This document shows, piece after piece, positions 12,101-63,140 of a stretch of 64,000 bases of DNA (within the stretch, counting starts at the first letter, position 1; each line of letters starts with the position of its first letter). Below the pieces are notes generated by a model, which searched no databases, was not told the origin of the DNA, and saw only the letters and a program-made list of their open reading frames with translations. A program made the position numbers and the translations under genes. The DNA comes from Patescibacteria group bacterium (GTDB taxonomy: Bacteria; Patescibacteriota; UBA1384; UBA12157; JAENIV01), in NCBI GenBank assembly GCA_049515915.1, contig JBEKTP010000003.1:735-64734 (forward strand), written 5' to 3'.

Positions 12101-12240
12101 CGCGGCTCTCCTTTGCTTGCCGGGGTTGTATGGGGCGGTATGGCCCGCCGGCAAGACAAGGAATGGGGCGAAACGCTCCGACGGAGCTTGAGCCGATTAT
12201 ATCTCGAGAACGTTTAAATGTAAATAGTATTTAATATCGT

Positions 12241-13398: not shown

Positions 13399-13454
13399 CA
13401 GCGCCTCTCCTTTCTTGGTTCGACCTTTCACTTCAAGATCACGGCATAATCAAA

Positions 13455-19207: not shown

Positions 19208-19330
19208 CTGGCTTCGCCAGTGTTGACATCAAGGCGGCGGTCTCATCGCCGCCTTTCTCTTATATTTATAAAAGGAAGGGCGGCAGGACTTCTGTCCTGC
19301 CGCCGTTATAATCTGGGCGAGAAACGCTGG

Positions 19331-19828
19331 TTAGGCAGTGGCCATCTCTGGGATCATGGCATCCACGGCTCGCATCACCGCCGCGGCGGTCTGATCGCTG
19401 ACTCTGAGTGGCGCTCGGAGCTCGGGCGCGGCGCGGAAGATGTCTCTGAGAGTAAGGACGAGCTCGCCGTAGTATGGCCTTTCTCGGAGGTCGCAGTCGA
19501 CGCTGAAAGTGGCGACGGGCTCTTTCCAGCAAAGTGTGAACAACCGTTCGTACTTTGGATGGCCGAGCCCGAGCTTGGCCAGCTCGCTGAAGATGACGAA
19601 CTGGTGTGGCTCGACGAGCAAGACGAGTCGCAGGTTGGTCACCTCGAGCTTCTTGTACAGCCGGAAGCCGCCGGTATTATACAGTGGCGCAAACTCCATT
19701 TTCTCCGTCGGCGAACCCGTGATGGCGAACACGACAGAAGTCGTCAGCTTCTCGAGGTCGCTCGCGTCAACCTCTTTCCCCAGAATTGGAATCAAGGCAC
19801 GGCAAACTGATTTGATCCCAACTTTCAT
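19331..19828 (-). CDS. hypothetical 165-aa protein (GC-rich cassette)
   Basis: Start MKVGIKSV with AGGAGAGAG upstream. Convergent with 18839-19207. GGGCGGCAGGAC...GTCCTGCCGCC hairpin terminator. Confidence 0.5.
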   Translation of the reverse strand: MKVGIKSVCRALIPILGKEVDASDLEKLTTSVVFAITGSPTEKMEFAPLYNTGGFRLYKKLEVTNLRLVLLVEPHQFVIFSELAKLGLGHPKYERLFTLCWKEPVATFSVDCDLRERPYYGELVLTLRDIFRAAPELRAPLRVSDQTAAAVMRAVDAMIPEMATA

Positions 19829-20152
19829 CTGTCTCTCTCCTCGCCTTAAAATGTTCGGCACAGTCAAATCTAGCTTTATATTGATTAGTCAACAACCACT
19901 TGTAAAGACCCCTTTCAAAAAATAGGGAACCAATAAGTATTGAGCAACGACGGCGGTTTGGAGCACACACTGACAAGGGCGGATCGAACGCGCTGAAAGC
20001 GCTTTCGGCCGCCAAGAAAGTTTCGGCGAAAGCCGAGCAGGACTCGGGTGGGTGATGTATTGCCCGCCTTTTTTGTTAGAAAGTCGCCGGGGAATTGACA
20101 GAAGGTAAATCATATTATATAGTGCAACTAATCTGAACTGGTGAGGTGATTC

Positions 20153-20671
20153 ATGAAATACCGTATCAAAATCGGAGCCGTAGAACGTGAAGTCGTCATG
20201 GATGGTAAGGGTTGGGCAGTCAGCGCGGTGATCCTCGCCATCATCGAGCAGCATCTCCATGGAGTACCGGCGGCGGCCATCAGCCTGGAGATCGGGGATA
20301 AGACTCTCGATCCGAACGGAGGGATCGATGTCCAGCTCGATAAGCTTAGGGCTACCAAAGTGATTGAGAACTTGCCGGTAATCACCGTGCAGATCGATCA
20401 AGAAATGGTGGCCGAGGAGCAACGGAGAATCACCGAAGCCAGCCGACCCGAAGCGCTCTCGACGGTGCATCAGGGGAAGGTTCGGTTCGTCCGGGTCAAC
20501 GACAAAACCCGGACCGACGTGGCCAGCATCCGGCGGCTGGCTCTCTCATCACGGGCGAGCCGGCGTTGTGGCTTTCTCTGGCTCTCGCGGCGCTACTGCG
20601 TCGCCTTCGGTGATAAACCGGTGCAGTGGCTGAGAGAGATGGAAATCGCCAGCGAGCTCTTGCGGAAGTGA
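20153..20671 (+). CDS. hypothetical 172-aa protein (GC-rich cassette)
   Basis: GGTGAGGTGA RBS. TTGACA-17-TATTAT promoter at about 20094-20125. Terminator hairpin 20700-20738. Confidence 0.5.
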   Translation: MKYRIKIGAVEREVVMDGKGWAVSAVILAIIEQHLHGVPAAAISLEIGDKTLDPNGGIDVQLDKLRATKVIENLPVITVQIDQEMVAEEQRRITEASRPEALSTVHQGKVRFVRVNDKTRTDVASIRRLALSSRASRRCGFLWLSRRYCVAFGDKPVQWLREMEIASELLRK

Positions 20672-20699
20672 GAGCTTCTCGGCCGCGGGGCCGGAAAAA

Positions 20700-20738
20700 C
20701 AGGCAGGGCGCGTATACGCGCCCTGCCTTCTCTGTTTT
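20700..20738 (+). terminator. intrinsic terminator
   Basis: CAGGCAGGGCGCGTATACGCGCCCTGCCT hairpin followed by TCTCTGTTTT. Confidence 0.5.
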
Positions 20739-20816
20739 AAAGAGTTCCAGAGAAAATTGTTATTTTGGTGATATAATAAAATAAAGTTATAAATAAATTA
20801 TTCTCAAGGAGGGTTC

Positions 20817-25420: not shown

Positions 25421-25993
25421 TTAAAAATTAATCTTATTTTTTTGGGCGGCTTCTTTAAATACTTTCTTGGCGCGAGAAATTAAAGTGCCGACAGTGCCGA
25501 GCGGACTCTTTAAAATATCAGCAATTTCGCCGTAATCCTTTTCTTCAAAGAAGCGCAAGACTAAAACGTCGCGATATTTAATCGGCAATTTCTTTAAAAC
25601 CTCGTCGATTTTTTCCTTATTTAATTTAATATCCAGTTCTTTGTAAATCGGAGCATTGGAACTTAACTTGATATCGTTATCGAAAAGCTCGACATTTTTC
25701 GGGGAGTTGTTTAGTTTTCGCCAGTGAGAAATGACTTCGTTGTGGCAAATCCGATAAATCCAGGAAGAAAATTTTAAACTTTGATCAAAATCGTTGAGGT
25801 TTTGATACGCCTTGATAAAAACTTCCTGCAGAATATCTTCGGCGTCTTCGCGTGAACAGTTAGTAATCCGAAAGATATAGCGTAAGAGTTTCGGTTCGTA
25901 GCGTCGCATCAAATGCAAATAATTTTCTTTGTCTGATAAAGAAAGCTGGACGATTTTTTCATCGCTTGTTTTTTCGGGAATCTTTCCGACCAT
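25421..25993 (-). CDS. RNA polymerase sigma-70 factor, ECF subfamily
   Basis: Region 2 (DAEDILQEVFIKAYQNLNDFD) and region 4 (YRDVLVLRFFEEKDYGEIADIL...GTVGTLISRAKK). Confidence 0.85.
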   Translation of the reverse strand: MVGKIPEKTSDEKIVQLSLSDKENYLHLMRRYEPKLLRYIFRITNCSREDAEDILQEVFIKAYQNLNDFDQSLKFSSWIYRICHNEVISHWRKLNNSPKNVELFDNDIKLSSNAPIYKELDIKLNKEKIDEVLKKLPIKYRDVLVLRFFEEKDYGEIADILKSPLGTVGTLISRAKKVFKEAAQKNKINF

Positions 25994-26174
25994 ATCCCGA
26001 TTCTACCATATCGTCTCGCTTATTGATACGTCTGGGAAGGTTTTTTCTTTCAGAAGCCAGTCGGGGGCTTGTCCCGAGCCACGTCGAGGGTTGATTTTTT
26101 TGATGATATATGGTAAGCTCGAGCCAACTTGCCAACGTACCGGCAAAATTCAAGGTAAAGGGGTGCGCCCCAAA

Positions 26175-26792
26175 ATGGCAGCAAAGGAAACGGCCGTACA
26201 GAAGTTTATCGATGAGGTGCTGGGTCCGAACCTCATAATGCCGGAGGACCCGAACCACCCGTGGTGGTTTCAGATTCTGAAGGCGCGGCTCTGGGACGTG
26301 GAAAGACGTGAAAAGCGTCTGATCTGGCGGCTGTTGGGAGAAATGAGATTTCTCAAAGGCTGCCCGACTGGTGATCCGACACATAACCACCACAGTTTGA
26401 GGCAGGATTTCAGCCTAGACGTGCTCTTGCCCTATGTGCAGGGCTACTTCCACGTGGTCCCGGATATGACGGGCATTGATGGTTCCGCCGGAGAACTGAG
26501 TTTCTGGGGATACATCCGTGATGGTCGAACTGTGCTCGGCAGAGTTTCATTCTCGGTAGAAAAGAACGGGGCTGAAGAATACTGGAAAGCCAGTAACCTC
26601 TGGGTCTTACTGAAGGACCCGGAGGATATCGTGATCAAGCTCGGCGTCACAGCCAAAGGAATGTTCCTCGCAATCTGCGAGGACCATAAGTGGGTGCTGA
26701 AGCGCCGCCAGGAGTACGAGGCGGAGACAGCGACATGGGTGGACGGGATGGAGCTTGAGAACAGTGAGCTTATCAACGGGATCGGAGGGTGA
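26175..26792 (+). CDS. hypothetical 205-aa protein (GC-rich cassette)
   Basis: Start MAAKETAV with AAAGGGG upstream. Stop overlaps the RBS and start region of the next ORF. Confidence 0.5.
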   Translation: MAAKETAVQKFIDEVLGPNLIMPEDPNHPWWFQILKARLWDVERREKRLIWRLLGEMRFLKGCPTGDPTHNHHSLRQDFSLDVLLPYVQGYFHVVPDMTGIDGSAGELSFWGYIRDGRTVLGRVSFSVEKNGAEEYWKASNLWVLLKDPEDIVIKLGVTAKGMFLAICEDHKWVLKRRQEYEAETATWVDGMELENSELINGIGG

Positions 26793-26796
26793 GAGG

Positions 26797-27063
26797 ATGA
26801 AGTACACAGAGTATGAGAGTGTCAAGCAACTCTATGATTCCCTTGCTCGACAGCACGGTCTTTCGCGCGAGCAAGTCGTGATCCGAGAAGATTCAACTGT
26901 CCCTAAGTTGGGACACAGACCTTCGGAGCGGCAGACTGGTCGCATGATGGTGAGTAACGACAGTCACACTATCGTGCGTTTCATCATCGAGGAACTGCGG
27001 GCCCACAAACCGGTCAAGTACCGAGCGTGGGTCTACGACGACCAAAATCATGTGTCCATATAG
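26797..27063 (+). CDS. hypothetical 88-aa protein (GC-rich cassette, translationally coupled)
   Basis: GGAGGGTGAGAGG immediately upstream. Followed by GGCCCCGCCAC...GTGGCGGGGCC terminator at 27091-27130. Confidence 0.45.
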   Translation: MKYTEYESVKQLYDSLARQHGLSREQVVIREDSTVPKLGHRPSERQTGRMMVSNDSHTIVRFIIEELRAHKPVKYRAWVYDDQNHVSI

Positions 27064-27090
27064 GGCATATGAACTTGAAGGGGAAAGAGC

Positions 27091-27130
27091 GGCCCCGCCA
27101 CAAAAGTGGCGGGGCCTTCTCTATTTTATA
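27091..27130 (+). terminator. intrinsic terminator
   Basis: GGCCCCGCCACAAAAGTGGCGGGGCC hairpin followed by TTCTCTATTTT. Confidence 0.5.
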
Positions 27131-27194
27131 GCGTAAATATCCTTGTAAACTACGATTAAAAATTAATCGTAGTTTGATTAGTTCTCAAAAAGGA

Positions 27195-27224
27195 TTGACA
27201 TTATCGAACCAAATTATTTACAAT
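27195..27224 (+). promoter_or_regulatory. sigma70-like promoter TTGACA-17-TTACAAT
   Basis: Lies in AT-rich DNA about 100 nt upstream of the GC-rich OMP-decarboxylase-like gene. Confidence 0.45.
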
Positions 27225-27328
27225 GCGTTTGGAAAGAAAGCTCTAAACTTTGCCGTCGGCAAGTTTGGGGTACGCACCTTAAGTTTTGAATGTGGATTCT
27301 ATTTTACCGCCCAAAGGGCGAGGAGGAG

Positions 27329-28162
27329 ATGACGTTGGCAGGCTGTAGAATTGATAAGCGCGTCGTGATTCTGGCTCTTGATGGTGTCGAAGGCAAGAGA
27401 GCAATGTTGGATACTATTACTCGTGTCATGGACGGCCCGATCGGTCCGTATGTGGCATATGTCAAACTCAATGATGGACTGCACGATAAGGACGGCGGTC
27501 CAAACATTGTCCGCGCGATCCTCGTGGAGCATCCGAAACTGGATGTCTTCGGCGACATCAAGGGTGCCGATGTCTGGGGTACAATCCAGAACATCTGCAA
27601 GCGCTACGATGTCGCACGGATGCTCATGACTATCTCGATCCACGTGGACCACGGCGTCTTCGCGAAGCTGGCAACCACCTATCCGGCGCTAAAGATTGCG
27701 GCGATGGTGGTGCCCACCGACATTGCGAAGAAGGACTTCCTGCGTCGGTACGACATGGAGCCAGCCGAGGCCATGGAAACGTGGTATGGCGGGCTGACTG
27801 ATCTCTACCGCGAAGAACTTGACATCCCGGACGGCTATCCTTCGGAGCTGGTTATTGCCAGCAAAGACATGCTCCCGACTGTGCAGGAGAACTTCCCAGG
27901 AGTCCTCTCGATCACGCCAGGCGTGCGCGACGTCTGGATGGTTGATGCCGATCATCAAAAGCGCACTACAGGTGTCCAGAAAGCACTGGAGCTTGGGGCG
28001 CGGTACGTTGTCATGGGCGCCCAGCTTCTCAAGGGTGCAACTGGCGTAGACGCTAAAGAGAGCCAGGCGCGGACCGTGGTGGAGATCGAGCGCTTTTTCA
28101 ATCCGCCGGACGAGGGCAACGATGCGCTGGCGGGGATACACTACCGCGAGCCGCAGATCTGA
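27329..28162 (+). CDS. orotidine-5'-phosphate decarboxylase-fold protein (PyrF-like; OMPDC/KGPDC/HPS superfamily)
   Basis: GC-rich. VILALDG...YVKLNDG...FGDIKGADV (D-x-K-x-x-D catalytic motif) ... MTISIHV ... ITPGVR ... GARYVVMG. Motif order matches OMP decarboxylase. GGAGGAG RBS. Confidence 0.6.
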   Translation: MTLAGCRIDKRVVILALDGVEGKRAMLDTITRVMDGPIGPYVAYVKLNDGLHDKDGGPNIVRAILVEHPKLDVFGDIKGADVWGTIQNICKRYDVARMLMTISIHVDHGVFAKLATTYPALKIAAMVVPTDIAKKDFLRRYDMEPAEAMETWYGGLTDLYREELDIPDGYPSELVIASKDMLPTVQENFPGVLSITPGVRDVWMVDADHQKRTTGVQKALELGARYVVMGAQLLKGATGVDAKESQARTVVEIERFFNPPDEGNDALAGIHYREPQI

Positions 28163-28264
28163 ACGTCATATCAAGCCGTTAATGACCGACCGAGATCGGT
28201 CAACGGCGCCGCACACCATTACGAAGGGAAGGAGAGGCCAATTTCTGAACAGCGAATCAGGGTT

Positions 28265-28543
28265 TTGAAAACGCCGGTCGGAACGGCGCCAAAATGGGTG
28301 CGCGAGGCTTGGACGGGACTGGAACTTCCCGCCGCTCCTGGATATTGGGGAGTTGTCGGCGTGGCCGCGGCGGCTGATGATACCGAAGGCTATGCCGTCC
28401 ATGCCCACACCGCTTTCTCATCTCTCGAGAGAGATCCCGAAAAAGCGAAAGCGTACGAGTGGTATCTGCAGCATCAGTCCGACCTGTTCCAATCGCATGT
28501 TTACCTGCGATTCGGCAAGCGGTTTTGCGAGTTGGTTACGTAG
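28265..28543 (+). CDS. hypothetical 92-aa protein between the PyrF-like and PRTase genes
   Basis: ORF with apparent TTG start. No clear RBS. Uncertain. Confidence 0.25.
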   Translation: MKTPVGTAPKWVREAWTGLELPAAPGYWGVVGVAAAADDTEGYAVHAHTAFSSLERDPEKAKAYEWYLQHQSDLFQSHVYLRFGKRFCELVT

Positions 28544-28578
28544 TCCATCACCGCTTGGAAAGAGGAGGAGGTGAAGAG

Positions 28579-29340
28579 ATGGCGAATAGTACGTTCAGAA
28601 GCATCCTCGATGTCAGGTCCGCAGAAGGGTTGTGGGCACTGAAGCCCTCGCATTTCGTCGATCGCGAGATTACTATCGGGGAGTTCACGCACATGCTCAA
28701 GCTACGAGACGCCTTCTGGCAGTACGAAGGCGAGCCGCGGCCGGAACAACCGCACGCCCTGACCCGGGACGGCATGTGCACCGACGGGTTCGTTGACACC
28801 CTGAGGCTTCTCTGCTTGTCCAATATCTGCGAAATTCTCGGCGGACAGATGCTGGCGCAGGTGAGGAAAGTAACTGTGTTGAAACCTTTCCAGTGGACCA
28901 TCAGTGCCGCCAACGCCGGAATCGATCTCGGTCACGAAGTTGGTCGGCAGGCGCGAACCAACATCGCCTTCACCGAGAAGGACAAGGATGGCAACCCGAC
29001 GGTCTGGAAGAGATTTACTGTTGCCGAGGGCGAGACAGTCCTGATTGTCAACGAGCTCATGACCACGGCCCATGGCAGTACTTATATGGCCAAGGCAGCT
29101 GTCCGGGACCAGAACAAGGTTCAGCCGGTTCGGTTCATGCCGGTAACGGCCGTGCTCGTCAACCGGTCAGCCGACACGGAGACCCTCGAAGACGGAACGC
29201 CGGTGGTGGCACGTTTCCGCTACCACATGCACACCTATCAGCCAGGCCCAGCCACCTGCAAGTACTGTGCGGCCGGTTCGCCCTCCATTAAGCCGAAGGT
29301 CGAAGGCAACTGGGAGAAGTACTTCGCTTCGGCGATCTGA
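28579..29340 (+). CDS. type I phosphoribosyltransferase (orotate-PRTase-like) with Cys-containing C-terminal extension
   Basis: PRPP-binding motif VLIVNELMTTAHGST (hydrophobic x4, acidic, TTG/A-x-T). N-terminal GEFTHMLKL resembles the OPRTase GEFTLKSG hood. GAGGAGGAGG RBS. Confidence 0.6.
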   Translation: MANSTFRSILDVRSAEGLWALKPSHFVDREITIGEFTHMLKLRDAFWQYEGEPRPEQPHALTRDGMCTDGFVDTLRLLCLSNICEILGGQMLAQVRKVTVLKPFQWTISAANAGIDLGHEVGRQARTNIAFTEKDKDGNPTVWKRFTVAEGETVLIVNELMTTAHGSTYMAKAAVRDQNKVQPVRFMPVTAVLVNRSADTETLEDGTPVVARFRYHMHTYQPGPATCKYCAAGSPSIKPKVEGNWEKYFASAI

Positions 29341-30593: not shown

Positions 30594-31670
30594 TTATTTT
30601 TCGAGGCGACGGCGCCGGCCGTGAAAGGCTTGGTGAACTTCGGCGAGATGTTGATCGGTGACGTGAGTATAAATTTGAGTGGTGGTAATTGAAGAATGAC
30701 CAAGAAGCTGCTGAACCGAGCGGATATCGGCGCCGTTTATGAGTAAATCTGTTGCAAAGCTATGACGGAGTGTGTGGGCCGTCACTTTTTTAGTTAGCCC
30801 TGCCATCTTAGCGTATTTTCGAATCATTCGTTGGACGGAACGGGGAGTGATGGATATTTCATCTTTGGTGATATTTATGTCGGGTTGGTTGGTGTGACCG
30901 TAAGAGATGAATAAGAATTTGTTTTTGTCATTGCGGCGAATGAGGTAATTATGGATGGCGTTTTTAGCTTCTTGGTCTAGAAAAACGACGCGAACTTTTT
31001 GCCCTTTGCCGACGACGGAGAATTCCGATTTGTCCAAATTAATATCTTCGATTTTGAGGTGGCAAAGTTCGGAAATCCGCAGGCCGGTCGAGAAAAATAA
31101 TTCTATTATGGCGCGGTCGCGGACGCCTTGAATAGTAGTAAGGTCGGGCATCGAAAGCAAATGATCGAGTTCGGTCTCATCCAAAAAAGAAATTTGCCGT
31201 TCACCGGTTTTAGCAAGCTCGATTTTGTCGGGCGAAAGTGTGGTGATATTGCGGCTGCCGAGGTACTTCAGGAAAGCGCGCAAGGCGATGAGGTAGTAGT
31301 TTTGGGTGGATTTGGAAAGAGTGTGACCGGGGAGGGTTGATGTTCTTAAAGATGCTGGTCGTGCCTGACCCAGCGAGTCGGGACTTTCTCCGCGCTCGGC
31401 TTGGCCTTGACCGTGCGCCTCGCCTATGCGAGTTACTTTGAGGTCACCGACCCCGCTTTTAGAGAGTTGTTGAGGGAGGCGGTTGAGCCAGAGGCGATAT
31501 TTATGGATCAAATTTTGATCAATTTTTTCCACCTCGGTAACACCATTTTCTTTAGCGAAACCGGCGAAACGTCGGAGATATCGATCATAATTTTGGGCTG
31601 AAAAGGGGGAGTTACCCTTCTCAATCTCCATATATTCTAAATAATCGATAATCAGCGAGTTGATGGTCAT
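30594..31670 (-). CDS. tyrosine site-specific recombinase (XerC/XerD-like) with a roughly 50-aa low-complexity insertion in the N-terminal domain
   Basis: C-terminal HTLRHSFATDLLINGADIRSVQQLLGHSSITTTQIYTHV (R..H..R..Y catalytic residues). GC-rich in-frame insertion at about 31320-31475. Confidence 0.85.
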   Translation of the reverse strand: MTINSLIIDYLEYMEIEKGNSPFSAQNYDRYLRRFAGFAKENGVTEVEKIDQNLIHKYRLWLNRLPQQLSKSGVGDLKVTRIGEAHGQGQAERGESPDSLGQARPASLRTSTLPGHTLSKSTQNYYLIALRAFLKYLGSRNITTLSPDKIELAKTGERQISFLDETELDHLLSMPDLTTIQGVRDRAIIELFFSTGLRISELCHLKIEDINLDKSEFSVVGKGQKVRVVFLDQEAKNAIHNYLIRRNDKNKFLFISYGHTNQPDINITKDEISITPRSVQRMIRKYAKMAGLTKKVTAHTLRHSFATDLLINGADIRSVQQLLGHSSITTTQIYTHVTDQHLAEVHQAFHGRRRRLEK

Positions 31671-33699: not shown

Positions 33700-34605
33700 T
33701 TAACCGATTTCCATTTCTTCAGGTTCACTGTTCTCGCCTTTATACTGAGCCGAAGAGGCTTCATCGTCAGGTTCAAGATGAGGTTTTTCGGTCTTATGTG
33801 CTTCTAAATCGGCGTCGGCATTACTGAACTCCACCTCGATTTTAGCGTTGTCGTTAAAATTTGGGCCACTTGATGGGTTTTTGGGCTGAGCGTTAATCGG
33901 AATTTGGCTGGAATTGGCTGGTGACTTTTCGCTTCCTGGCATAATTAATTGACCCGGAGTGGCTGGTTTTTCAGCGGCCGGTGGCGGTGGGGTCGGGGGA
34001 ACAAACGGGGTCGGCACTTTGGGTTCGGCTGGAGATGGAGTAAATGACGATAAAGTGGGCGGGGTTGGTGCTTTAGGTTCAGGAGCAGTTGGTTTGGGGA
34101 CAGACGACGGCGGCGTTGAGGGGCTTGGGGCGGAAGGTTTTGTTGGAGCGGGCGGCGGAGTGGGTTTGGTAAAATTTTGGTTAGTCGGCGTGGGTGTGTT
34201 TGGCTTGGGGACTGGCGGTGGCGAAACAAGTGGTTTATTCGGTAACAACGCGGGTTTTCCAGGCGGGGGCGGCACGCTTGGCTTAAATTTTAAACTGCCA
34301 AAGTTTTGGCTGGGCGGCGGGGGGGCGGATGGATTTTTAGGTGGCTCGGCATGGTGCTCGACCATTTTCGGCAGGCCGACCTGCTCGGGGTTTTTATCGA
34401 TTTCTTCTTTGATTTCGGCTTTTTTAATCAAACCGCCGGTGAGTTGCTCTAAATAACGGACATCAATTAAAGCGATGGCCGGTTTGCCGCCTTTAGTAAG
34501 AATGTACATCTTGTCGCGCTGAACTTCGTTGACGATGTTTGAAAAGTGATCGCGGGCGTAGGTTAGGGGAATAATGTTTTCCAGGGCAACTTTTAAGTCG
34601 TTCAT
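33700..34605 (-). CDS. Phd/YefM-like N-terminal domain fused to long proline-rich low-complexity region
   Basis: N-terminal 60 aa (VALENIIPLTYARDHFSNIVNEV...PAIALIDV) resemble the Phd/YefM antitoxin fold. Residues about 90-230 are PPPxPxP repeats. Confidence 0.45.
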   Translation of the reverse strand: MNDLKVALENIIPLTYARDHFSNIVNEVQRDKMYILTKGGKPAIALIDVRYLEQLTGGLIKKAEIKEEIDKNPEQVGLPKMVEHHAEPPKNPSAPPPPSQNFGSLKFKPSVPPPPGKPALLPNKPLVSPPPVPKPNTPTPTNQNFTKPTPPPAPTKPSAPSPSTPPSSVPKPTAPEPKAPTPPTLSSFTPSPAEPKVPTPFVPPTPPPPAAEKPATPGQLIMPGSEKSPANSSQIPINAQPKNPSSGPNFNDNAKIEVEFSNADADLEAHKTEKPHLEPDDEASSAQYKGENSEPEEMEIG

Positions 34606-34727: not shown

Positions 34728-35834
34728 TGCACAAGTTGAGATACATCGGTAACACTCCTAAAGTTATATTCGGAGGTGTTACCGATGAACAAACCATTGC
34801 CGGCTGAGCTGTTTTGTTACTTTAAGTCAAAACCAATAGTTCTTATCAATCGTCACGAGCGGTGGAAGAAGGTAGCGAAAGAGCAAAAGATCTCCCGCGA
34901 GGCCGCAAAGCGGCTCGAATGGATCATTTTCTATGAAACCAAAGGTGAGTTTAATGCCGTCTTTACTTGTCGCCATTTCGGCATTGCCAGAAAAACTTTC
35001 TACAAATACCTCAACCGTTTCAATCAGAACCCGATTTCACTTGAGGATCATTCCAAAAGACCGTTCAATGTTCGCCAGAAAATGATTACGCTTGAGGAAG
35101 AAACCAGAATCATTTCGCTAAGAAAACGCTATATTTTTTACGGCGCAGAAAAACTCCGAGCAGAGTACAATGAGCTTTATGGCAAGGATATTTCCAGCTG
35201 GAAAATCGGCTACACCATTGCTAAATTCCAGTTATATCCAAACCCAAAAAAGGTTGACAAACATCGGTTACAGATTAAGCGCAACAGGAGAAAACGAAAG
35301 ATCACCGAGCTTAAAAAGAGAAATGAAAACATCTTGGGCCACCTAATCCAGATCGATACGATCGTACTTCATCTGGATGGTCTCAAGCGTTATATTCTCA
35401 CCGCCATCGATACCTACGGCAAGCTGGCCTTTGCCCGGGTCTACCGTAATGCCAGCTCTTACTCGGCGGCTGATTTCTTAGAAAGATTAAACTTCCTTTT
35501 TGACGATCAAATCGTTAATATACAAACAGACAACGGTTCGGAGTTTCTAAAGCACTTTGAGAAAGCCTGCCAGAGTCTCAAAATGGAACATTTCTTCTCC
35601 AGAGCCAGAACTCCTCAAGACAACGCCTATGTCGAACGCTTCAACCAAACCTTACAAAAAGAATGGCTCTCTGAGGGACACTTCCACCCCGACCCCAGCG
35701 TTATGAATGCCAAGCTGACCGACTGGCTTATCCGCTACAACTTCCACCGCCGCCATGCCAGCTTAGGCAATATCTCACCCATCAATTATTGCATCAAAAA
35801 TAGACAACTGTTACCGATGTACTCAACTCGTACA
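34728..35834 (+). mobile_element. IS481-like insertion sequence (DDE rve transposase) with about 25-bp imperfect terminal inverted repeats and 5-bp GGGGA target-site duplication
   Basis: Left inverted repeat TGCACAAGTTGAGATACATCGGTAAC (34728-34753). Right inverted repeat GTTACCGATGTACTCAACTCGTACA (35810-35834), whose reverse complement is TGTACGAGTTGAG-TACATCGGTAAC. GGGGA directly flanks both ends (34723-34727 and 35835-35839). Confidence 0.7.
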
Positions 35835-35843
35835 GGGGATTGA
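34785..35843 (+). CDS. IS481-family transposase (HTH + rve integrase core)
   Basis: DDE core: QIDT..., TAIDTYGKLA..., DNGSEF..., YVERFNQTLQKEW. GGAGG RBS. Stop lies just past the right inverted repeat. Confidence 0.85.
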   Translation: MNKPLPAELFCYFKSKPIVLINRHERWKKVAKEQKISREAAKRLEWIIFYETKGEFNAVFTCRHFGIARKTFYKYLNRFNQNPISLEDHSKRPFNVRQKMITLEEETRIISLRKRYIFYGAEKLRAEYNELYGKDISSWKIGYTIAKFQLYPNPKKVDKHRLQIKRNRRKRKITELKKRNENILGHLIQIDTIVLHLDGLKRYILTAIDTYGKLAFARVYRNASSYSAADFLERLNFLFDDQIVNIQTDNGSEFLKHFEKACQSLKMEHFFSRARTPQDNAYVERFNQTLQKEWLSEGHFHPDPSVMNAKLTDWLIRYNFHRRHASLGNISPINYCIKNRQLLPMYSTRTGD

Positions 35844-36065: not shown

Positions 36066-36476
36066 ATGACGCAGCAAATGTTGCAGGCAGTTTCGGAGTA
36101 CGCGCACGCAGAGCCGGTTCATTTCGGTGTGATTGTCGCCATGTGTGTGGCGGCGCTGATGTTTGGGGGAGTACTGTTGCTACTGAAGCAGCAGTATAAC
36201 AAGCGTCAGCGTTTCCGCAAGTACTTTGACGGCGATCCGGAAAATCTGGAGAGCCAAAGCAAAGTCGATGCGGTGATGACTAAAGAGTATCGACGCCGCG
36301 ATCAGCTCGACGAGCAACTTGAGGAGTCACTGACTGTCGTCGAGAAAACTCGCCAAGCAATTCGCGCCCAGAACCATAAGATCGAGCTGAGGATCTCCTC
36401 GGCGGGCGACTTCAAATTCCGGGCGAAACGGCCAAAGACTCTGGATGCCTCCAGCGAGGAGTCGGGCGCCTCCTAG
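36066..36476 (+). CDS. hypothetical membrane-anchored 136-aa protein (GC-rich cassette)
   Basis: GGGAGGT RBS. One TM (FGVIVAMCVAALMFGGVLLLL), then a charged coiled-coil-like C-terminus. Stacked hairpins and a terminator at 36490-36610. Confidence 0.5.
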   Translation: MTQQMLQAVSEYAHAEPVHFGVIVAMCVAALMFGGVLLLLKQQYNKRQRFRKYFDGDPENLESQSKVDAVMTKEYRRRDQLDEQLEESLTVVEKTRQAIRAQNHKIELRISSAGDFKFRAKRPKTLDASSEESGAS

Positions 36477-36647
36477 CGGAGCGGAAACTTGGAGGGCGTT
36501 CCCTCTCCAGAACCTGGGCGGAACCCAGGTGTTGAAAATTCTGCTGCCATTAGCGGCGCGGCAGGATAACAGGGGCGAGTGTGACATAATGCACTCGCTC
36601 CTTTCTTATGTCTAAAAAGGTATATACTAAATTCAAGAAAGGGGCGT

Positions 36648-45856: not shown

Positions 45857-46216
45857 GTGAACTTTGATCTCACTCCGTCCATGCAAACTTCCTGGGATCA
45901 GGGAGTCATCTTAGCTCGGAGTACTACTGTAATGGGTAAAGGGGACGAAAGGCCCAAGCCTTCTCAGCGAGGGCATATGTCGGGCCTTAGCAGACAAGCG
46001 CGTCAAGATGAAGCCATTATGGCAGCTGTTCTTGCTAGCGGTGGTTCAGGCTTCAGGTCTGATCACCTGGTGCAAGCCAGACTGGCCATGGTGGCTCTGC
46101 ACCCGCGGATGTTCAAGTCACCGGCCGACGTAGTTGAGCGCATTAACTCACTAGCCTGCCGGTCAAGTATCCGGCGTGAATACCGTGATCTTGTACATCG
46201 ACTCAAGCCCCAGTAG
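45857..46216 (+). CDS. hypothetical 119-aa protein (GC-rich cassette)
   Basis: GTG start after GGGGGCGAG. No recognisable domain. Confidence 0.4.
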   Translation: MNFDLTPSMQTSWDQGVILARSTTVMGKGDERPKPSQRGHMSGLSRQARQDEAIMAAVLASGGSGFRSDHLVQARLAMVALHPRMFKSPADVVERINSLACRSSIRREYRDLVHRLKPQ

Positions 46217-46288
46217 GAGGGGGGCAGCAATCAGAACGGGGCGACGCACTGCGCGTCGCCCCGAAACTATCTTAGGGAGGTAAAGGAT

Positions 46289-46870
46289 TTGGTTGCTCTG
46301 CGCGAAGAAGTTTGGCATAACCTCGGCGGTATGTCGCGACCGCGCCGAGTTGCCCCGAGCCATCTTCCCAAGTGGAGTCGGGGCCTGCCCTGGAAAGTTT
46401 CGGGTGACATTGAAGTTGTGATGCCGCTGGTCGAACAACTCTCGGGTAAGCACCCGGACTTGGTAGATCAACTGATCGTTCAGTGGGAGAAAGAAAAGCT
46501 TTCCTCGCTTCATTGCAGTTCCGGTAACTTCTACGAATCACTTCTTCGGGGGACGAAGATTTCTCTCGGGCATATCTGGGCAGAGATCTACGTCCTATGG
46601 CTTCGGATTGCCATGCTTGAACTCGGTCTTCACGACATTGAGTGCGCTGAGCGCTTCCGGACCATCTACCACGACGTGGGAAGAGTTGAGATCCGTGTGA
46701 CGTTGTATTTCTCTGAACCGTTGCCGAAACAGTTTGCCGGGCTCGAGACACTCATCTCGAGCTATCTCAACCGGCTGATTTCGGGACAGCAATTTGATCT
46801 GAAGGCAAGAATGGCAGCTTACGTGGCTTTCCGCCGCGCGATACTGCCAGAAGAAAAGGAGACAGTTTAA
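46289..46870 (+). CDS. hypothetical 193-aa protein (GC-rich cassette)
   Basis: TTG start after GGGAGGTAAAGGA. Followed by GGCAGGCGGCG...GCTGCCTGCC hairpin plus T-rich tail (46872-46915). Confidence 0.45.
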   Translation: MVALREEVWHNLGGMSRPRRVAPSHLPKWSRGLPWKVSGDIEVVMPLVEQLSGKHPDLVDQLIVQWEKEKLSSLHCSSGNFYESLLRGTKISLGHIWAEIYVLWLRIAMLELGLHDIECAERFRTIYHDVGRVEIRVTLYFSEPLPKQFAGLETLISSYLNRLISGQQFDLKARMAAYVAFRRAILPEEKETV

Positions 46871-57666: not shown

Positions 57667-58950
57667 TTATGGACTCAAGCGTTTAACATCGCGTGGGAAT
57701 AAGACCGCTTCTTTGACATTCGTAAGTCTGAGTAATAATTGGATTAATCTTTCCGAACCGATAGCCCAACCGCCGTGCGGCGGCATCGCGTATTTAAAAA
57801 CATCCAAATAGAACTCTAAACCGGCGGATTTGACACCTTTCTTTTCCATATTTTCAATCAACATTTTATATTCGTGAATGCGCTGGGAACCGGTGACGAT
57901 CTCGACGCCACGGAAGAGTAAATCAAATCCGTAAGTGGCATTTTTATCTTCCGGATCGGGCATAGTGTAAAATGGCCGATCTTTCCAAGGATAATGAGTG
58001 ATAAAAATGAAATCACTGCCAAATTTTTCTAAAGCGTAACGACAGGCGAGCCGCTCAGCTTCCGGATCGATATCGGTTTCTTTTGGCACGTCATATCCAT
58101 ATTTTTCCTTGATGATTTTTTTGATTTCCGAGAGTTTAATGTGCGGAATTTCTTTCGGCACTGCCGGAACGGTCATATCGTAAAGATCAAAATATTTTTG
58201 ACCATTTTCTTTTAAGTGCTCGAACATTTTGACGAATACTTTATTTAGCATCGCGGTGACGGTTTTATAATTTTCGATGAATCCCATCTCGGCATCCAAA
58301 CTGATGTATTCATTGACATGACGAGTGGTAAAGTGCGGTTCGGCCCGAAAAACCGGCCCGATTTCAAAGACGCGTTCAAAAACGCCGACCATAATTTGTT
58401 TGTAAAGTTGCGGACTTTGAGCCAAGTAAGCGTCTTTTTCAAAATATTTCAATTTGAAAAAGTTGGCGCCGCCCTCGGAAGCCGCTTCCAAAATCTTGGG
58501 GGTTTTGATTTCGGTAAAACCTTCTTCACGCATCACCTTTTCGTAAGTTTCCAATAATAAATCATAAATCTTAAAAATAGCTTGAATTTTGCCGTGGCGG
58601 AGTGAAATCGGTCTTAGATCAAGCAGGGTTGAAAGCTGAAGTTCGAATTTGGTTTTAGCTAAATCTAAGGGCAGATCCTTGGCGAGCGGCGAAATTACTT
58701 CGGAGGCTTCGGCGGCGATTTCCCAGCCGCTTTTAGCGCGCTCGTCTTGGCGCGCCGTGCCGGTCACCGAAACGGCTTCGCCCATTTTAAAAGGCACGGC
58801 TTTTTCGAAAACGGTTTGAATAGTGCCGGTGTAATCTTGAATTTGGGCGAAGGTAATGCCGCCCATTGTTCGAAGATTAATGACGCGCCCGGCAATCGTA
58901 ATTTTCTTGCCCAAATGATTGGCGATATCCGAAATGAGAACTCTTGCCAT
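57667..58950 (-). CDS. class IIb aminoacyl-tRNA synthetase (aspartate/asparagine--tRNA ligase, archaeal-type length)
   Basis: N-terminal OB anticodon-binding domain. Motif 2 FRAEPHFTTRHVNEY. Motif 3 GGWAIGSERL. Confidence 0.88.
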   Translation of the reverse strand: MARVLISDIANHLGKKITIAGRVINLRTMGGITFAQIQDYTGTIQTVFEKAVPFKMGEAVSVTGTARQDERAKSGWEIAAEASEVISPLAKDLPLDLAKTKFELQLSTLLDLRPISLRHGKIQAIFKIYDLLLETYEKVMREEGFTEIKTPKILEAASEGGANFFKLKYFEKDAYLAQSPQLYKQIMVGVFERVFEIGPVFRAEPHFTTRHVNEYISLDAEMGFIENYKTVTAMLNKVFVKMFEHLKENGQKYFDLYDMTVPAVPKEIPHIKLSEIKKIIKEKYGYDVPKETDIDPEAERLACRYALEKFGSDFIFITHYPWKDRPFYTMPDPEDKNATYGFDLLFRGVEIVTGSQRIHEYKMLIENMEKKGVKSAGLEFYLDVFKYAMPPHGGWAIGSERLIQLLLRLTNVKEAVLFPRDVKRLSP

Positions 58951-59118
58951 TTTTCACCTCAAAATTTATTTGTCTTAGATAATCTTACCAAATTTGACGA
59001 AATTCTCAAGCGATTTTTGACCAAAGTGATTTTTTGGAGGGGGACGCCTTGATTATTCGTTAGTTTTATGGTAAAGTATGGTCAGAAATCGCCGTCATCA
59101 ACTCTGAGCGAGGTGAAG

Positions 59119-59541
59119 ATGATGTCTGATTCAAAGAAGACGTGGATTGGGGCGTTGATTTTTGTGACACTGATGGTATGCTGGTATTTCGTGACACGGC
59201 CCTCTGCGACAAGCCAGCCGCCGGGCGCAAGTGCAGTCGCGGCTATTCGGGCTATCGGTCTAGGCGGGCCGTCTTTCGTCCACACATGGACAGGGACGAA
59301 CGAGTTCGGGATGAGCGTGATTCTTATCATCAACGACGGCGGCATGTGTTCGTTCGGCGGTGATCCGCTCAAGTGGAGAGTCGAGGGCAGTACCCTCGTC
59401 ATCTACAAGGACGGGTCCAACTACACTCTCAGAGGGACTCTCTCGAGCGACGGGCACGGGTTGGAGCTGGCCATTCCGTGGAACAGCCCAATTACCGGAA
59501 AGCCGGAGGTACGAACCTACAACTTCGTCCGGCAAGGGTGA
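59119..59541 (+). CDS. hypothetical membrane-anchored 140-aa protein (GC-rich cassette)
   Basis: GAGGTGAAG RBS. N-terminal TM, beta-rich extracytoplasmic domain. Confidence 0.45.
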   Translation: MMSDSKKTWIGALIFVTLMVCWYFVTRPSATSQPPGASAVAAIRAIGLGGPSFVHTWTGTNEFGMSVILIINDGGMCSFGGDPLKWRVEGSTLVIYKDGSNYTLRGTLSSDGHGLELAIPWNSPITGKPEVRTYNFVRQG

Positions 59542-59627
59542 GAAGAATGCGGCGACCAAGGCGTTGTTGTCACCTTCCGCCGCGACGAAAATATCTTGAT
59601 CGGTACTGGAGGGGCGATGCAAGCCGG

Positions 59628-59687
59628 ACTCGGCGGGCTTTAGCCCGCCAGACGAGCTCTGGGGATTTCCCGGAGCTCGTTTTCGTT
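59628..59687 (+). repeat. double-hairpin terminator-like element, family B copy 1
   Basis: GGCGGGC-ttta-GCCCGCC, then ACGAGCTC..GGGGATTTCCC..GAGCTCGT, then TTTTCGTT. Near-identical copy at 61036-61094. Confidence 0.65.
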
Positions 59688-59770
59688 CCAAAGAGAAAAA
59701 TTTGACAGTTAAAATAGTCGTTGTGGTATAGTATTAATACATCAATTTAATGAACTTGACAGGAGGAAAA

Positions 59771-60106
59771 ATGGATCCGAAAGAAAAAAAAGAGATGACG
59801 GAACTTGTTGGCGAGGTAATTGACCGAAAGGTAACACCGCGGTTGGAGAAAATTGAAAAGAAATTATCAGATCACGATAAAAAATTTGAAACGATTATTG
59901 AGCAAGTCGTTAAAAATTCAGAAAACATTACCGATATTAAAGAAGATTTATCGGAACTAAATGAAGAGATGACTGATGTGAAGTATGTAGACGAACGCAT
60001 TGAAACAAAACTGGATTCCTCAATTCGTCGAGAAACCGACTTGGAAGTTAAAACTTCTCAACTTTCCCGCCGCGTTCTCCGGCTGGAATCTAAAAAGACA
60101 AGTTAA
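59771..60106 (+). CDS. small coiled-coil protein
   Basis: GGAGG RBS. Lys/Glu-rich heptad-like sequence. AT-rich host-like composition. Confidence 0.45.
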   Translation: MDPKEKKEMTELVGEVIDRKVTPRLEKIEKKLSDHDKKFETIIEQVVKNSENITDIKEDLSELNEEMTDVKYVDERIETKLDSSIRRETDLEVKTSQLSRRVLRLESKKTS

Positions 60107-60263
60107 TTATCAAATTTTTAATTGAACTCACTAATTATTAAGGGTAATTTTACTAGTCGGCGTTTGTTTTGGCGTTGGGTCTTGATATTTAAGGAATTTT
60201 GAGGTAGAATATAGCCAGAATTACCGATTGTACCACACTCTGCTAAAGAAAGGCGAAAAGACG

Positions 60264-60998
60264 ATGAGGAAGAGAGCAGGGCTGTTGATGTTGCTGGCAG
60301 TGGTTGTTGGTCTGACGATGATACTGGCGGGCTGCGGCGGACACTCGTCGGCGGCGGCGCTGGTGGCCAAATCCGGTGTGACGGCCGAACCTCCGGAAGG
60401 CGCTCCGAGGACGCCATTCAGCCAGGTCAGGACATCAGCCGATGATTCGAATTCGGGGAATTTGGCGCAGTCAGCGAAGGTGGCCAAGATAGCATCTACT
60501 ACTGAAGCCGCGCAGGCTCTCGACCACTTCACGGTTTCGTTGTACGGACTTTCGAGTATGAACGGAGATTCCGAAATAACCGCGCCGCCGGGGTGTGTGA
60601 TCTTTCCATGGATTCATGTGAGAAACATGGGAACCGTGCCAATCACGGGGATCAAGATCGCGATCCGTTCTAATCCCGCCATCACGGTGGCTTATCCGGA
60701 TGATCCTTTCAACAAGAAGTTCATTAAGGCTTTGACGACGTCAGGGGTACCACTTCTCGATGGGCAAACCCGGAAGAATACCATTGGACCGTACAACTCG
60801 AAGTACTATCGGCAAGGTGCCGAAGCAATTTGGTCAGCGCTTGTTGCCGGGCCCAGTGGTGTTGAGGGCGTGATGCCAATTCAGCTGAGCAAACATCTGA
60901 TGCCGGGTACAGACGAACAGCTCCGGTTTACTCTGATCTATAAAGGAGCTGAGAAGGTCGTAGCGGTGGCGACGGTACACGTGATGCACCCAGAATAG
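60264..60998 (+). CDS. hypothetical lipoprotein (GC-rich cassette)
   Basis: Signal peptide with lipobox LAGC (MRKRAGLLMLLAVVVGLTMILAGCGG). Followed 38 nt later by repeat B2. Confidence 0.55.
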   Translation: MRKRAGLLMLLAVVVGLTMILAGCGGHSSAAALVAKSGVTAEPPEGAPRTPFSQVRTSADDSNSGNLAQSAKVAKIASTTEAAQALDHFTVSLYGLSSMNGDSEITAPPGCVIFPWIHVRNMGTVPITGIKIAIRSNPAITVAYPDDPFNKKFIKALTTSGVPLLDGQTRKNTIGPYNSKYYRQGAEAIWSALVAGPSGVEGVMPIQLSKHLMPGTDEQLRFTLIYKGAEKVVAVATVHVMHPE

Positions 60999-61035
60999 CG
61001 AACACTTCGTCGTGACGTGACACGTTGCGGATCGA

Positions 61036-61094
61036 ACTCGGCGGGCTTTAGCCCGCCAGACGAGCTCTGGGATTTCCCGGAGCTCGTTTTCGTT
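61036..61094 (+). repeat. double-hairpin terminator-like element, family B copy 2
   Basis: Same sequence as 59628-59687 apart from a single G deletion in the second loop. Confidence 0.65.
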
Positions 61095-61184
61095 TATCTA
61101 AATTATTATTATGACAGCAATTCTTGTTAATTTCTCGAACTTGTGTTACAATGCGACCAGTTCTTGCACATCAAGGAGAGCGTC

Positions 61185-61457
61185 ATGGAAAGCGGTACGG
61201 CGAAGACGTTAGGAGTTATTTCAGTTGTACTGGGGGCGCTAACAGCCGGTGTCGAAGTGATTGGCGGGCTTTGCTGCGGCTGGATTGTCTGGCCGTTGGC
61301 GATTGCCGCCATCATCCTGGGCATTCTGGCGTGGACCAGCGCCCGGGGCGACCAGACGGCCGCGACTCTGGGCAAGATCGGGATCTGCTTGAGTTTAATC
61401 GTCCCTATCTGGCAGCTGCTGACCGCCACGATCCTGGCCGGTCTTATCCATCGGTAG
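61185..61457 (+). CDS. small membrane protein (DUF4190-like)
   Basis: Two TM helices with CCGW motif. Immediately upstream of the DUF2752-like gene. Confidence 0.4.
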   Translation: MESGTAKTLGVISVVLGALTAGVEVIGGLCCGWIVWPLAIAAIILGILAWTSARGDQTAATLGKIGICLSLIVPIWQLLTATILAGLIHR

Positions 61458-61460
61458 TCA

Positions 61461-61796
61461 GTGATGGATGCGTCAGTCAGGCAAGGTCTGAAAGCGTCAT
61501 TCCTGATCATCGCCGCTATGATGGCGGCAATGATCGGAAGAAGCTTCCTCCTAAACAGCTTTGATCCGCACCTCGCAGTTCTCTCGCGAATTGCACCGAC
61601 AGTGCCGGGTCACCACTGCTTGCTCTGCGGTATGACTCACAGTTTTATGGCCATTTCGCGGGGTGACTTTGGCCAGGCGGTTGCCGCTAATCCCGGCGGC
61701 CCAATGCTGTACTTTTTCTTTTGTCTGGCGGCGGTTGGCGGTCTCGTCGTAATCTTTCGAGATTACATCACTCGCCACCACCGCCACAAGGCCTGA
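61461..61796 (+). CDS. DUF2752-family membrane protein
   Basis: HCLLCGMTHSF (CxxCG-M/L-T) signature between TM helices. Confidence 0.5.
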   Translation: MMDASVRQGLKASFLIIAAMMAAMIGRSFLLNSFDPHLAVLSRIAPTVPGHHCLLCGMTHSFMAISRGDFGQAVAANPGGPMLYFFFCLAAVGGLVVIFRDYITRHHRHKA

Positions 61797-62346: not shown

Positions 62347-62616
62347 ATGCGGATCTTAGTAGGAATTTGGTGCTACGTCATCGCGATAGCTTTTGTCGCT
62401 ATAATCTGGTACACAATTCCGATGATTATCGGCGACTTCGTTGACTATCGCGTGATGGGGCGATGGATTGATTTGTTCGGCGCCATCTTGGGTATTGTCC
62501 TTGTCGTAGTGCTGATAGCCGCAGCAACGTTTCTTTTCGTTTTGCCCTGGAAACCAGCTGTGATTAAGTTTGTGGTTGACTTGGATCCATCCGATACAGA
62601 AAGGGAAACTAAGTGA
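62347..62616 (+). CDS. hypothetical 2-TM membrane protein (GC-rich)
   Basis: TAGGAGGAG RBS. Stop overlaps the start of the next ORF. Confidence 0.4.
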   Translation: MRILVGIWCYVIAIAFVAIIWYTIPMIIGDFVDYRVMGRWIDLFGAILGIVLVVVLIAAATFLFVLPWKPAVIKFVVDLDPSDTERETK

Positions 62617-63140
62617 TCGAACGTTTGATGGCGATTGAAGATCCGGAAGAACAGGGCCGACTATGGGAATTCTATGACAGGATTTTCGGGCCGGTCAACG
62701 AGCTCACGCCTATCATTCAGACCTTTCCGAAGGCGAACCTCATCGGTTTTCTGGCGAGTTCGCGCGTGGTGAAGTTCGTTGTTCGTGAGGAAGGTGAAAT
62801 CGTCGCTCTGGCGATCATCGCTGATCCCGAAGAGTGGGACAGCTGGCTTTCGCCGGCGTATTTCGCCAAGAACTACCCAGGGAAGATCGTCTTCCACATC
62901 CCCGTCATCGCTATCGCGCCAGAAAAGCGCGGCAGTCTGTTGGCGGTCCGACTGGTGAAGGCGCTGATTAACGAAGCGCCTGCGAACGCGGTCGTCACTC
63001 TGACTCACTCCGAGCTGGTTAATCCACTTATGCTCAAGCTTGTTCAAGCCACCGGCGTGATGGATTACGCGGAGGGTGGGAAGATTGACGCCGAAGCCTG
63101 CCTCGTCTTTCAATGGAAAGACGGGAAGGTGCGAATCTAA
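62613..63140 (+). CDS. hypothetical protein, possibly GNAT-like fold
   Basis: IAIAPEKRGSLLAVRLVKALINEA resembles GNAT motif A. Weak. Confidence 0.35.
   Translation: MIERLMAIEDPEEQGRLWEFYDRIFGPVNELTPIIQTFPKANLIGFLASSRVVKFVVREEGEIVALAIIADPEEWDSWLSPAYFAKNYPGKIVFHIPVIAIAPEKRGSLLAVRLVKALINEAPANAVVTLTHSELVNPLMLKLVQATGVMDYAEGGKIDAEACLVFQWKDGKVRI

Follow-up and report, generated by a model that had tools for sequence, protein, structure and literature searches.

A near-identical double-hairpin, terminator-like element in two copies at a variable secreted-protein locus next to AspRS in a Patescibacteria group bacterium

Intrinsic terminators usually each have a sequence of their own, which changes quickly. 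The attC sites of integrons each form one imperfect hairpin with pairing conserved ends, lie beside intI and belong to cassettes without promoters. Short non-coding paralogues (e.g. the spacers of rRNA operons and duplicated regulatory regions) undergo concerted evolution by gene conversion, and in well-studied bacteria a length of about 63 nucleotides (nt) lies near the lower limit for homologous recombination. Repeated stem-loops have moreover been described as families (stem-loop repeats and SPRITE) with many dispersed copies that are thought to be mobile (PMC2267715, PMC3184786). Here we describe element B, a double hairpin followed by a U-rich tract, which occurs in two near-identical copies within a 64,000-nt stretch of a Patescibacteria group bacterium (assembly GCA_049515915.1, contig JBEKTP010000003.1, positions 735 to 64,734 of the forward strand; hereafter the window, in whose numbering coordinates are given unless a relative is named). 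In our best reading, B would be a lineage-restricted boundary module of a variable secreted-protein locus next to AspRS; its anatomy, strand and position make it likely that it acts as a Rho-independent (intrinsic) terminator with an extra clamp hairpin.

Sequence, fold and copy number of element B

Over their whole length the two copies differ solely by GGGG versus GGG at the start of the second loop (GATTT in copy 1, ATTT in copy 2), and the original prediction, according to which 59628-59687 and 61036-61094 are identical bar one loop G, is thus borne out by the sequence. The first 36 nt have exactly two occurrences in the window (at 59628 and 61036; 0 expected from 100 shuffles), and the last 26 nt are likewise identical between the copies. 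When 280 nt were aligned per copy, the similarity began 3 nt 5' of ACTCGG (at CG(G/A)ACTCGG) and stopped at ...CGTT, with no alignable similarity in the surrounding sequence, which agrees with the unrelated flanks that had been claimed.

Both copies fold stably (copy 1: -40.9 to -41.8 kcal/mol, z -4.6 against shuffles; copy 2: -43.3 kcal/mol, z -7.0 against shuffles). A GC-rich hairpin 1 of 7 bp (-14.5 kcal/mol) directly abuts hairpin 2, whose 11-bp core (CGAGCUCUGGG/CCCGGAGCUCG, -20.7 kcal/mol) is extendable to 14 bp (-24.4 kcal/mol) and has directly on its 3' side an interrupted U-rich tract (UUUUCGUU). The fold therefore upholds the predicted double hairpin with U-tract, situated 3' of two unrelated GC-rich genes. 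This anatomy exists on the sense strand only (on the minus strand no T-tract follows the hairpins), i.e. it is one-directional, and the copies lie 86 and 37 nt past the stop codons of co-directional genes. Among the terminator-like sites listed for 50-64 kb, copy 2 ranks at the top (14 pairs, 8 GC pairs), and the same fold is obtained for all five B copies that we recovered from three genomes (-34 to -45 kcal/mol). No Rfam 15 family was found at B (best E=0.89 across 59500-61200); over the whole window, two tRNAs alone reach the Rfam gathering score. In a terminator of this build, hairpin 2 together with the U-rich tract would release RNA polymerase, and hairpin 1 would shield the terminator stem from the GC-rich upstream mRNA, protect the 3' end, or both.

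The repeat is present in the genome and is not a product of its assembly. Both copies are spanned at 100% identity by contigs of ENA ERZ4200889 and ERZ27249994 and of JGI 3300017998, 3300038426 and 3300018013; among these, contigs of three separate projects have an identical 12 kb (100%), and two others cross both copies. An assembly artefact, the doubt raised together with the original prediction, is ruled out by at least five independent assemblies that carry both copies. One Logan and two MEGAHIT contigs terminate at or inside a B copy, as is usual at repeats. The strain-variant contigs (L013-L017) are 99.9-100% identical to the window and have the same arrangement, and because of this near-identity they are uninformative on the evolution of the copies. 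One of them (L016, JGI 3300027896) begins with an AT-rich segment (1-346) that matches neither the window nor the fetched loci, the rest being 99.9% identical to 58337-59901; it is either chimeric or has a recombined 3' part of AspRS.

A covariance model built from the five B copies and run over the window with filters off retrieved only the two copies (104 and 94 bits). The next matches (16-17 bits) were the two members of family A (9313-9372 and 11195-11259, minus strand), a pair built like B but different from it in sequence, in accordance with the likeness between the two families that had been claimed. A weak match of the model in the relative L019 (9108-9175, 17 bits) was judged to be a generic hairpin. 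An exact-pattern scan of 185,579 GTDB species genomes returned no true B (one chance match, in a coding region of a high-GC genome), and a pattern scan of the JGI metagenome set, which evidently does not hold the source contig, returned three chance matches in coding DNA of 71-74% GC; pattern scans of IMG/VR for families B and A, and BLAST against phage and plasmid records, gave no match. A DNA uptake sequence is ruled out by the presence of two copies only. Furthermore, a variable or template repeat of a diversity-generating retroelement was rejected, since the copies lie past stop codons and differ by a 1-nt indel in place of the A-position substitutions of such repeats; the scanned open reading frames (ORFs) of the window contained no reverse transcriptase. 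The chance that two random copies in 64 kb come as close as 1.4 kb is P ~0.04, and for the 1.9 kb of the family A pair it is P ~0.06; this close spacing of both pairs argues for a local and not a dispersive process of duplication.

The locus in relatives and the history of the copies

Relatives were reached through homologues of the coiled-coil gene that lies between the two copies; searches with the proteins encoded upstream of B returned self-matches only. In the contigs of the relatives the same neighbourhood adjoins histidine kinase and AspRS genes, and B was found in three genomes: the window (two copies), L021 (one) and L019 (two). The window reads AspRS (minus strand), a gene for a protein of 140 amino acids (aa), B1, the coiled-coil gene, a 244-aa lipoprotein gene, B2, and the genes for a transmembrane (TM) and a DUF2752 protein. 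The close relative L021 (542-kb contig, ERZ25039512 contig_69030) has housekeeping DNA 94% identical to the window and an AspRS that is 94% identical, and its single B (59/60 identical to B1) sits in a 374-bp gap between divergent AspRS and coiled-coil genes. Upstream of this copy there is no gene on the plus strand, and homology between L021 and the window starts 9 nt before B. That L021 could be a deletion derivative which lost the 140-aa gene was considered and rejected (no convincing homology between L021 5650-5750 and window 58972-59618). The more distant L019, whose histidine kinase gene is ~70% identical in nucleotides to that of the window, has a 143-aa lipoprotein gene, B, coiled-coil gene 1, a 247-aa gene, B and coiled-coil gene 2. 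Its 247-aa protein has no relationship to the 244-aa one of the window, and its 143-aa gene (5224-5732) is a mosaic: the mature domain resembles the 140-aa protein of the window (28% aa identity, E 4e-7), and the promoter and signal peptide (5224-5380) are 69% identical in nucleotides, over 160 nt, to window 60180-60340 of the 244-aa gene.

Over the five B copies, the upstream gene thus belongs twice to the 140-aa family, is once the 244-aa gene and once the unrelated 247-aa gene, and is absent once; a co-directional gene precedes both window copies and both L019 copies, and does not precede the L021 copy. For four of the five copies, the distance to the conserved coiled-coil motif TTGACAG...TGTGGTATA downstream is 12-130 nt. 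Given that the upstream gene varies or is absent and that most copies precede this motif, boundary module of the locus is a more apt description of B than 3' terminus of a particular cassette, and the stereotyped 3' module of cassettes envisaged in the original prediction, which would have tied B to its upstream genes, was not upheld. The two upstream proteins of the window, whose possible paralogy had been left to be checked, are not paralogous (BLASTP E=5.8). In the more distant L009, L018, L023 and L025, unrelated strong hairpin terminators stand just upstream of the coiled-coil promoter motif; no B was found in L026 or L023-L025, where other terminators are present instead. The locus would be composed of single-gene units, i.e. 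a secreted or membrane gene, a terminator, the coiled-coil promoter-like motif with its gene, a variable gene and a terminator.

Sequence comparison of the relatives points clearly to a recombinogenic AspRS-adjacent locus, in which gene modules have been reshuffled between genomes. The coiled-coil gene tree (window 59771-60106; L009 4150-4482; L021 6001-6336) conflicts with that of AspRS: L009 has a coiled-coil protein of 96% aa identity but an AspRS of 80%, and L021 one of 58% but an AspRS of 94%, an incongruence that suggests allele replacement or lateral exchange at the locus. L018 encodes, at 4703-5848, a plus-strand 381-aa ORF with a signal/TM start that is homologous to the 244-aa lipoprotein; a hairpin terminator and, after it, the coiled-coil promoter motif lie downstream (the minus-strand call at 4742-5866, 374 aa, is probably spurious). 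L009 carries at 3260-5290 a tandem duplication of a promoter with a 5' untranslated region (UTR) hairpin, a 108/109-aa TM gene, a DUF2752 gene and a terminator (GAGGCCTGACC...GGTCAGGCCTC), with a coiled-coil gene paralogue after each tandem copy; in the second copy the gene caller set a minus-strand ORF (4845-5258) over the DUF2752 gene.

Two side observations concern the contigs of relatives. A short hairpin GAACGGCTCAC...TGAGCCGTT recurs at three gene ends, which it either directly follows or overlaps (L023 6018-6046 and 6833-6866, L025 4983-5013); the three genes differ, and the hairpin could be what is left of a zinc-ribbon C-terminus (CGxCGERL) or else a further 3' module that they share. 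In L021, two IS1595-family transposase genes (728-1393 and 8071-8736, both on the minus strand, 221 aa) flank the AspRS/B/coiled-coil region and may form a composite arrangement.

The core of B is identical between the window copies (100% of aligned bases), and the window sequence is 98% identical to that of L021, 90% to L019 copy 1 and 78-79% to L019 copy 2; the two L019 copies match one another at 75%. In the stems, the window and L019 copy 1 agree at 40/42 positions (binomial P ~7e-5 against a ~70% background), in the loops at 4-5/9, substitutions and indels of B being concentrated in loops. Loop lengths are 4, 5 and 9 nt, and the stem top is mismatched in L019 copy 2; as a variable loop length alters the spacing of the arms, a hairpin is favoured over a rigid double-stranded operator. 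Some states are moreover specific to a genome and common to its paralogues: where the two window copies, like that of L021, read AGA, the two L019 copies read TAA, and the 5' CAGT of the L019 pair corresponds to CCGG, TCGA and CCGA in the window and L021 copies. The identical tract of the window copies stops where the interspecies conservation stops.

On these comparisons B is judged to predate the split from the ~70%-identical relative L019. The window and L019 have in common the order B, coiled-coil gene, variable gene, B, from which it follows that the duplication is most likely old. The duplicated unit would probably have comprised a variable gene, a terminator and a coiled-coil gene, and the tandem duplication of such a unit in L009, with its own terminator, provides a precedent. 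Copy 2 of the window would later have been homogenised by gene conversion or by local recombination over a short homology, as argued by the drift of the L019 copies to 75% next to the identity of those in the window, by the edges of the tract and by the genome-specific states that paralogues share. In this history only the homogenisation of copy 2 would be recent, with gene conversion as its presumed route. The original prediction had proposed recent duplication or recombination: recombination best explains the near-identity, but, given the two-copy layout of L019, the element is not simply a recent duplicate.

The terminator reading and its alternatives

A number of points weigh against a terminator with this history. 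The argument for termination is one of anatomy; the L021 copy has no co-directional gene upstream to terminate, so that for this copy an insulator or boundary role fits better than that of a gene's own terminator; and the U-tract is interrupted, with three U residues that can pair into the stem. Furthermore, none of the 21 pairs of B changed on both sides among the five sequences (three changed one-sidedly), hence covariation gives the structure no support, and stems conserved as sequence would fit a sequence-specific ligand or a recent lateral exchange of the locus too. Independent recent duplications in each lineage are possible in place of gene conversion, and the DNA covered by the copy counts amounts to ~69 kb of the source genome and 12 kb per relative. 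In family A the copies differ by a diverged and expanded loop 1 and by one pair of hairpin 2 in which both bases changed (G-C to A-T); this speaks for selection on the fold, and the plan of the pair parallels that of family B.

The alternative closest to a terminator, with which it overlaps, is that B serves the coiled-coil gene as a boundary or insulator, offers a sequence-specific binding site or forms the 3' terminus of a small RNA, being kept for the sake of the coiled-coil promoter (e.g. by blocking read-in transcription or by binding a regulator). We consider it rather unlikely. The position of four copies shortly before TTGACAG...TGTGGTATA and that of the L021 copy between divergent AspRS and coiled-coil genes speak in its favour, as do a promoter-like TTGACT ~30 nt upstream in L021, which could yield a ~90-nt transcript ending in B, and the retention of the stems as sequence (no compensatory change) together with an invariant ACTCG 5' of hairpin 1. 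A different promoter and gene pair, however, follows window copy 2, and unrelated terminators occupy the same place in L018, L023, L025 and L009, as if any strong terminator would serve; the variable loop length is unlike a DNA site of fixed geometry, and Rfam offers no match.

Less probable still are the two explanations that invoke mobility of B itself. A small mobile repeat of the REP/REPIN (repetitive extragenic palindrome), MITE (miniature inverted-repeat transposable element) or SPRITE type, inserted intergenically and terminator-like by chance, would account for the sharp edges and unrelated flanks, and would be in keeping with the stable intergenic stem-loops of known repeat families (PMC2267715) and of pneumococcal SPRITE (PMC3184786) and with the transposases of the lineage (rve-family at 34776-35843, IS1595 in L021). 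It is made very improbable by the two copies, 1.4 kb apart, in 64 kb and the lack of any in the scanned public collections, by ends that are not inverted repeats (ACTCGGCGGG versus AACGAAAACG, the reverse complement of the 3' end CGTTTTCGTT), by the absence of a target-site duplication (flanks CCGG|...|CCAA and TCGA|...|TATC), of GTAG on either strand of B and of a Y1_Tnp/RAYT-type transposase among the window ORFs scanned against Pfam, and by its occurrence in three genomes at one syntenic locus, not scattered. With a comparably slight probability, B could be a cassette recombination site (integron attC-like, or attL/attR), on which a recombinase inserted the 1,408-bp unit of coiled-coil gene, lipoprotein gene and B. 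In two genomes a two-gene unit does lie between direct repeats (and likewise in family A), the gene content between and around the copies varies among relatives, the repeat edges match the conserved element, and some assemblies break at the copies; but no recombinase or integrase lies within 10 kb on either side, the only tyrosine recombinase of the window (30594-31670, read as XerC/D-like) is 28 kb away, and B consists of two independent hairpins with unpaired ends and no RYYYAAC/GTTRRRY termini. Own promoter-like sites precede the genes, two copies make no array, and all strain-level contigs have the same arrangement, with no empty site or circular junction. An integron-type attC site is thereby excluded on anatomy and context, and the word cassette of the original prediction does not apply in the integron sense.

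Setting of the locus and comparison with known systems

The genes around B (NCBI locus tags ABSE91_01665-01680; Table 1) agree with the earlier description of a GC-rich membrane-protein or lipoprotein gene before each copy, as seen from the TM helix of the 140-aa protein and the LAGC lipobox of the 244-aa protein. In a word-indexed search of 5.8 billion proteins the 140-aa protein matched only itself; the word-indexed protein search with the 244-aa lipoprotein also gave the self-match alone, and full HMMER gave 9 distant homologues (23-35% identity). The coiled-coil protein has 20 homologues. Most genes in 59-63 kb are preceded by their own promoter-like site. The motif before the coiled-coil gene, TTGACAG-N18-TGGTATA(G/A)T, also precedes the coiled-coil gene in L009, L018, L019 (twice), L021, L023 and L025; its conserved -35/-10 spacing of 19 nt, as compared to the 16-18 nt of the sigma-70 scan, places it outside that simple scan, and we therefore regard it as a candidate promoter. 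Within 61095-61123, ATGACAGCAA lies 17 nt past copy 2 and is similar to TTGACAGCAA after L019 copy 1; possibly it represents a -35 box of the coiled-coil type that has decayed, which would faintly hint at a former coiled-coil promoter after copy 2.

Table 1. Coordinates of element B, of the neighbouring genes and promoter-like sites, and of related features of the window (GC3, GC content at third codon positions).
Feature	Coordinates	Strand	Details
140-aa protein gene	59119-59541	+	N-terminal TM helix; GC 0.57, GC3 0.71; 86-nt 3' UTR, then copy 1
Element B copy 1 (putative Rho-independent terminator)	59628-59687	+	60 nt; covariance-model score 104 bits; begins with ACTC
Copy 1, hairpin 1	59632-59649	+	GGCGGGC/TTTA/GCCCGCC
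Copy 1, hairpin 2	59650-59682	+	AGACGAGCTCTGGG/GATTT/CCCGGAGCTCGTTT
Copy 1, tail	59683-59687	+	TCGTT
Coiled-coil gene promoter-like motif	59702-59732	+	TTGACAG...TGTGGTATAGT; starts 14 nt past copy 1
Coiled-coil protein gene	59771-60106	+	111 aa; AT-rich, GC3 0.35; between the B copies; without own hairpin terminator
Promoter-like site	60182-60210	+	TTGATA-17-TAGAAT; precedes 244-aa lipoprotein gene
244-aa lipoprotein gene	60264-60998	+	LAGC lipobox; GC 0.55, GC3 0.62; 37-nt 3' UTR, then copy 2
Element B copy 2	61036-61094	+	59 nt; covariance-model score 94 bits
Copy 2, hairpin 1	61040-61057	+	
Copy 2, hairpin 2	61058-61089	+	
Copy 2, tail	61090-61094	+	
Promoter-like site	61124-61152	+	TTGTTA-17-TACAAT; starts 30 nt past copy 2
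90-aa TM protein and DUF2752 gene pair	61185-61796	+	downstream of the TTGTTA-17-TACAAT site
Family A copy 1	9313-9372	-	3' of GC-rich gene 9463-10308(-); B-model score 16.1 bits; short hairpin GTCCGTGC/GAT/GCACGGAC, 5 nt, long hairpin GGCGGCCAGCTGC/AAC/GCAGCTGGCCGCC, then CTTTTTCT
Family A copy 2	11195-11259	-	3' of GC-rich gene 11267-12154(-); B-model score 16.7 bits
Examples of GC-rich genes	3636-3992, 9463-12154, 12961-13431, 18839-20671, 25929-29340, 36066-36476, 45857-46870, 59119-59541, 60264-61796, 62613-63140		

The window, which matches bases 733-64732 of a 187-kb JGI contig, is as a whole ordinary chromosome (CTP synthase, GroEL, EF-P, SSB, DnaE, several tRNA synthetases and other housekeeping genes), in which gene composition is bimodal: housekeeping genes have a GC3 of 0.35-0.47, and the genes interspersed among them one of 0.62-0.73. 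The GC-rich class, which includes both genes upstream of B, is mostly without Pfam match and often TM or secreted, and may derive from foreign DNA or be a lineage-specific class with its own mutational regime. Strong GC-rich hairpins close many of its genes (for example at 19213-19308, 20653-20744 and 36489-36604), several of these hairpins being double, and the family A pair brackets a two-gene unit of 1.9 kb. Elsewhere in the window we observed a minus-strand gene (30594-31670) whose product has Phage_integrase and SAM-like N-terminal domains (the XerC/D-like tyrosine recombinase mentioned above), a plus-strand rve-family (IS3/IS481-like) transposase gene (34776-35843) preceded by a perfect palindrome (34745-34788), and a Phd/YefM-like antitoxin domain within 33700-34605.

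A wider proposal may be put forward tentatively, as a possibility that we regard with doubt: the conserved boundaries (terminator B, the motif of the coiled-coil promoter and, further downstream, the P_x promoter together with its 5' UTR) might act as portable homology arms, by which Patescibacteria could swap, duplicate and reshuffle GC-rich orphan secreted or membrane genes. Equally speculative is the corollary of a recombinase-independent 'expression slot' system that would generate surface-protein diversity in an episymbiont; its terminators might conceivably be kept identical by gene conversion, and family A and the bimodal GC3 could then be further instances. If the terminator reading is true, a non-coding terminator is far better conserved than the accessory genes it follows, concerted evolution operates over a tract of only ~60 nt, and B marks an AspRS-adjacent variable secreted-protein locus at which promoters and terminators stay and genes are exchanged. 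The relevance of the element would lie in how episymbionts with reduced genomes vary their surface proteins; no long-standing question depends on it.

B resembles intrinsic terminators in its GC-rich stem of 11-14 bp, its short loop and its U-rich tail, and in its place on the sense strand immediately behind a gene, but differs in that one and the same 60-mer follows two unrelated genes, that its stems are ~95% conserved where housekeeping DNA is ~70% identical, and that one copy is without a gene to follow. With the terminator-resembling repeat families it shares that it is short, intergenic, stably folding and sharp-edged, with unrelated flanks; it departs from them in having two copies in 64 kb, both at a single syntenic locus, and in lacking terminal inverted repeats, target duplication, GTAG and RAYT. 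The repeats of the chromosomal integron of Vibrio cholerae are similar in being near-identical palindromes 3' of head-to-tail genes that are unrelated and for the most part orphans, whereas B, unlike attC, has two separate hairpins, no intI nearby and promoter-like sites before the genes. As in concerted evolution, the paralogues of B are more alike than the interspecies orthologues and the identical tract is limited to the element; unlike in typical cases, this tract is very short (~63 nt), and the mechanism that we propose for its homogenisation is accordingly a presumptive one. Taken together, these comparisons indicate that element B, rather than constituting a new kind of system, adds to a known kind, namely that of repeated terminator-like stem-loops.

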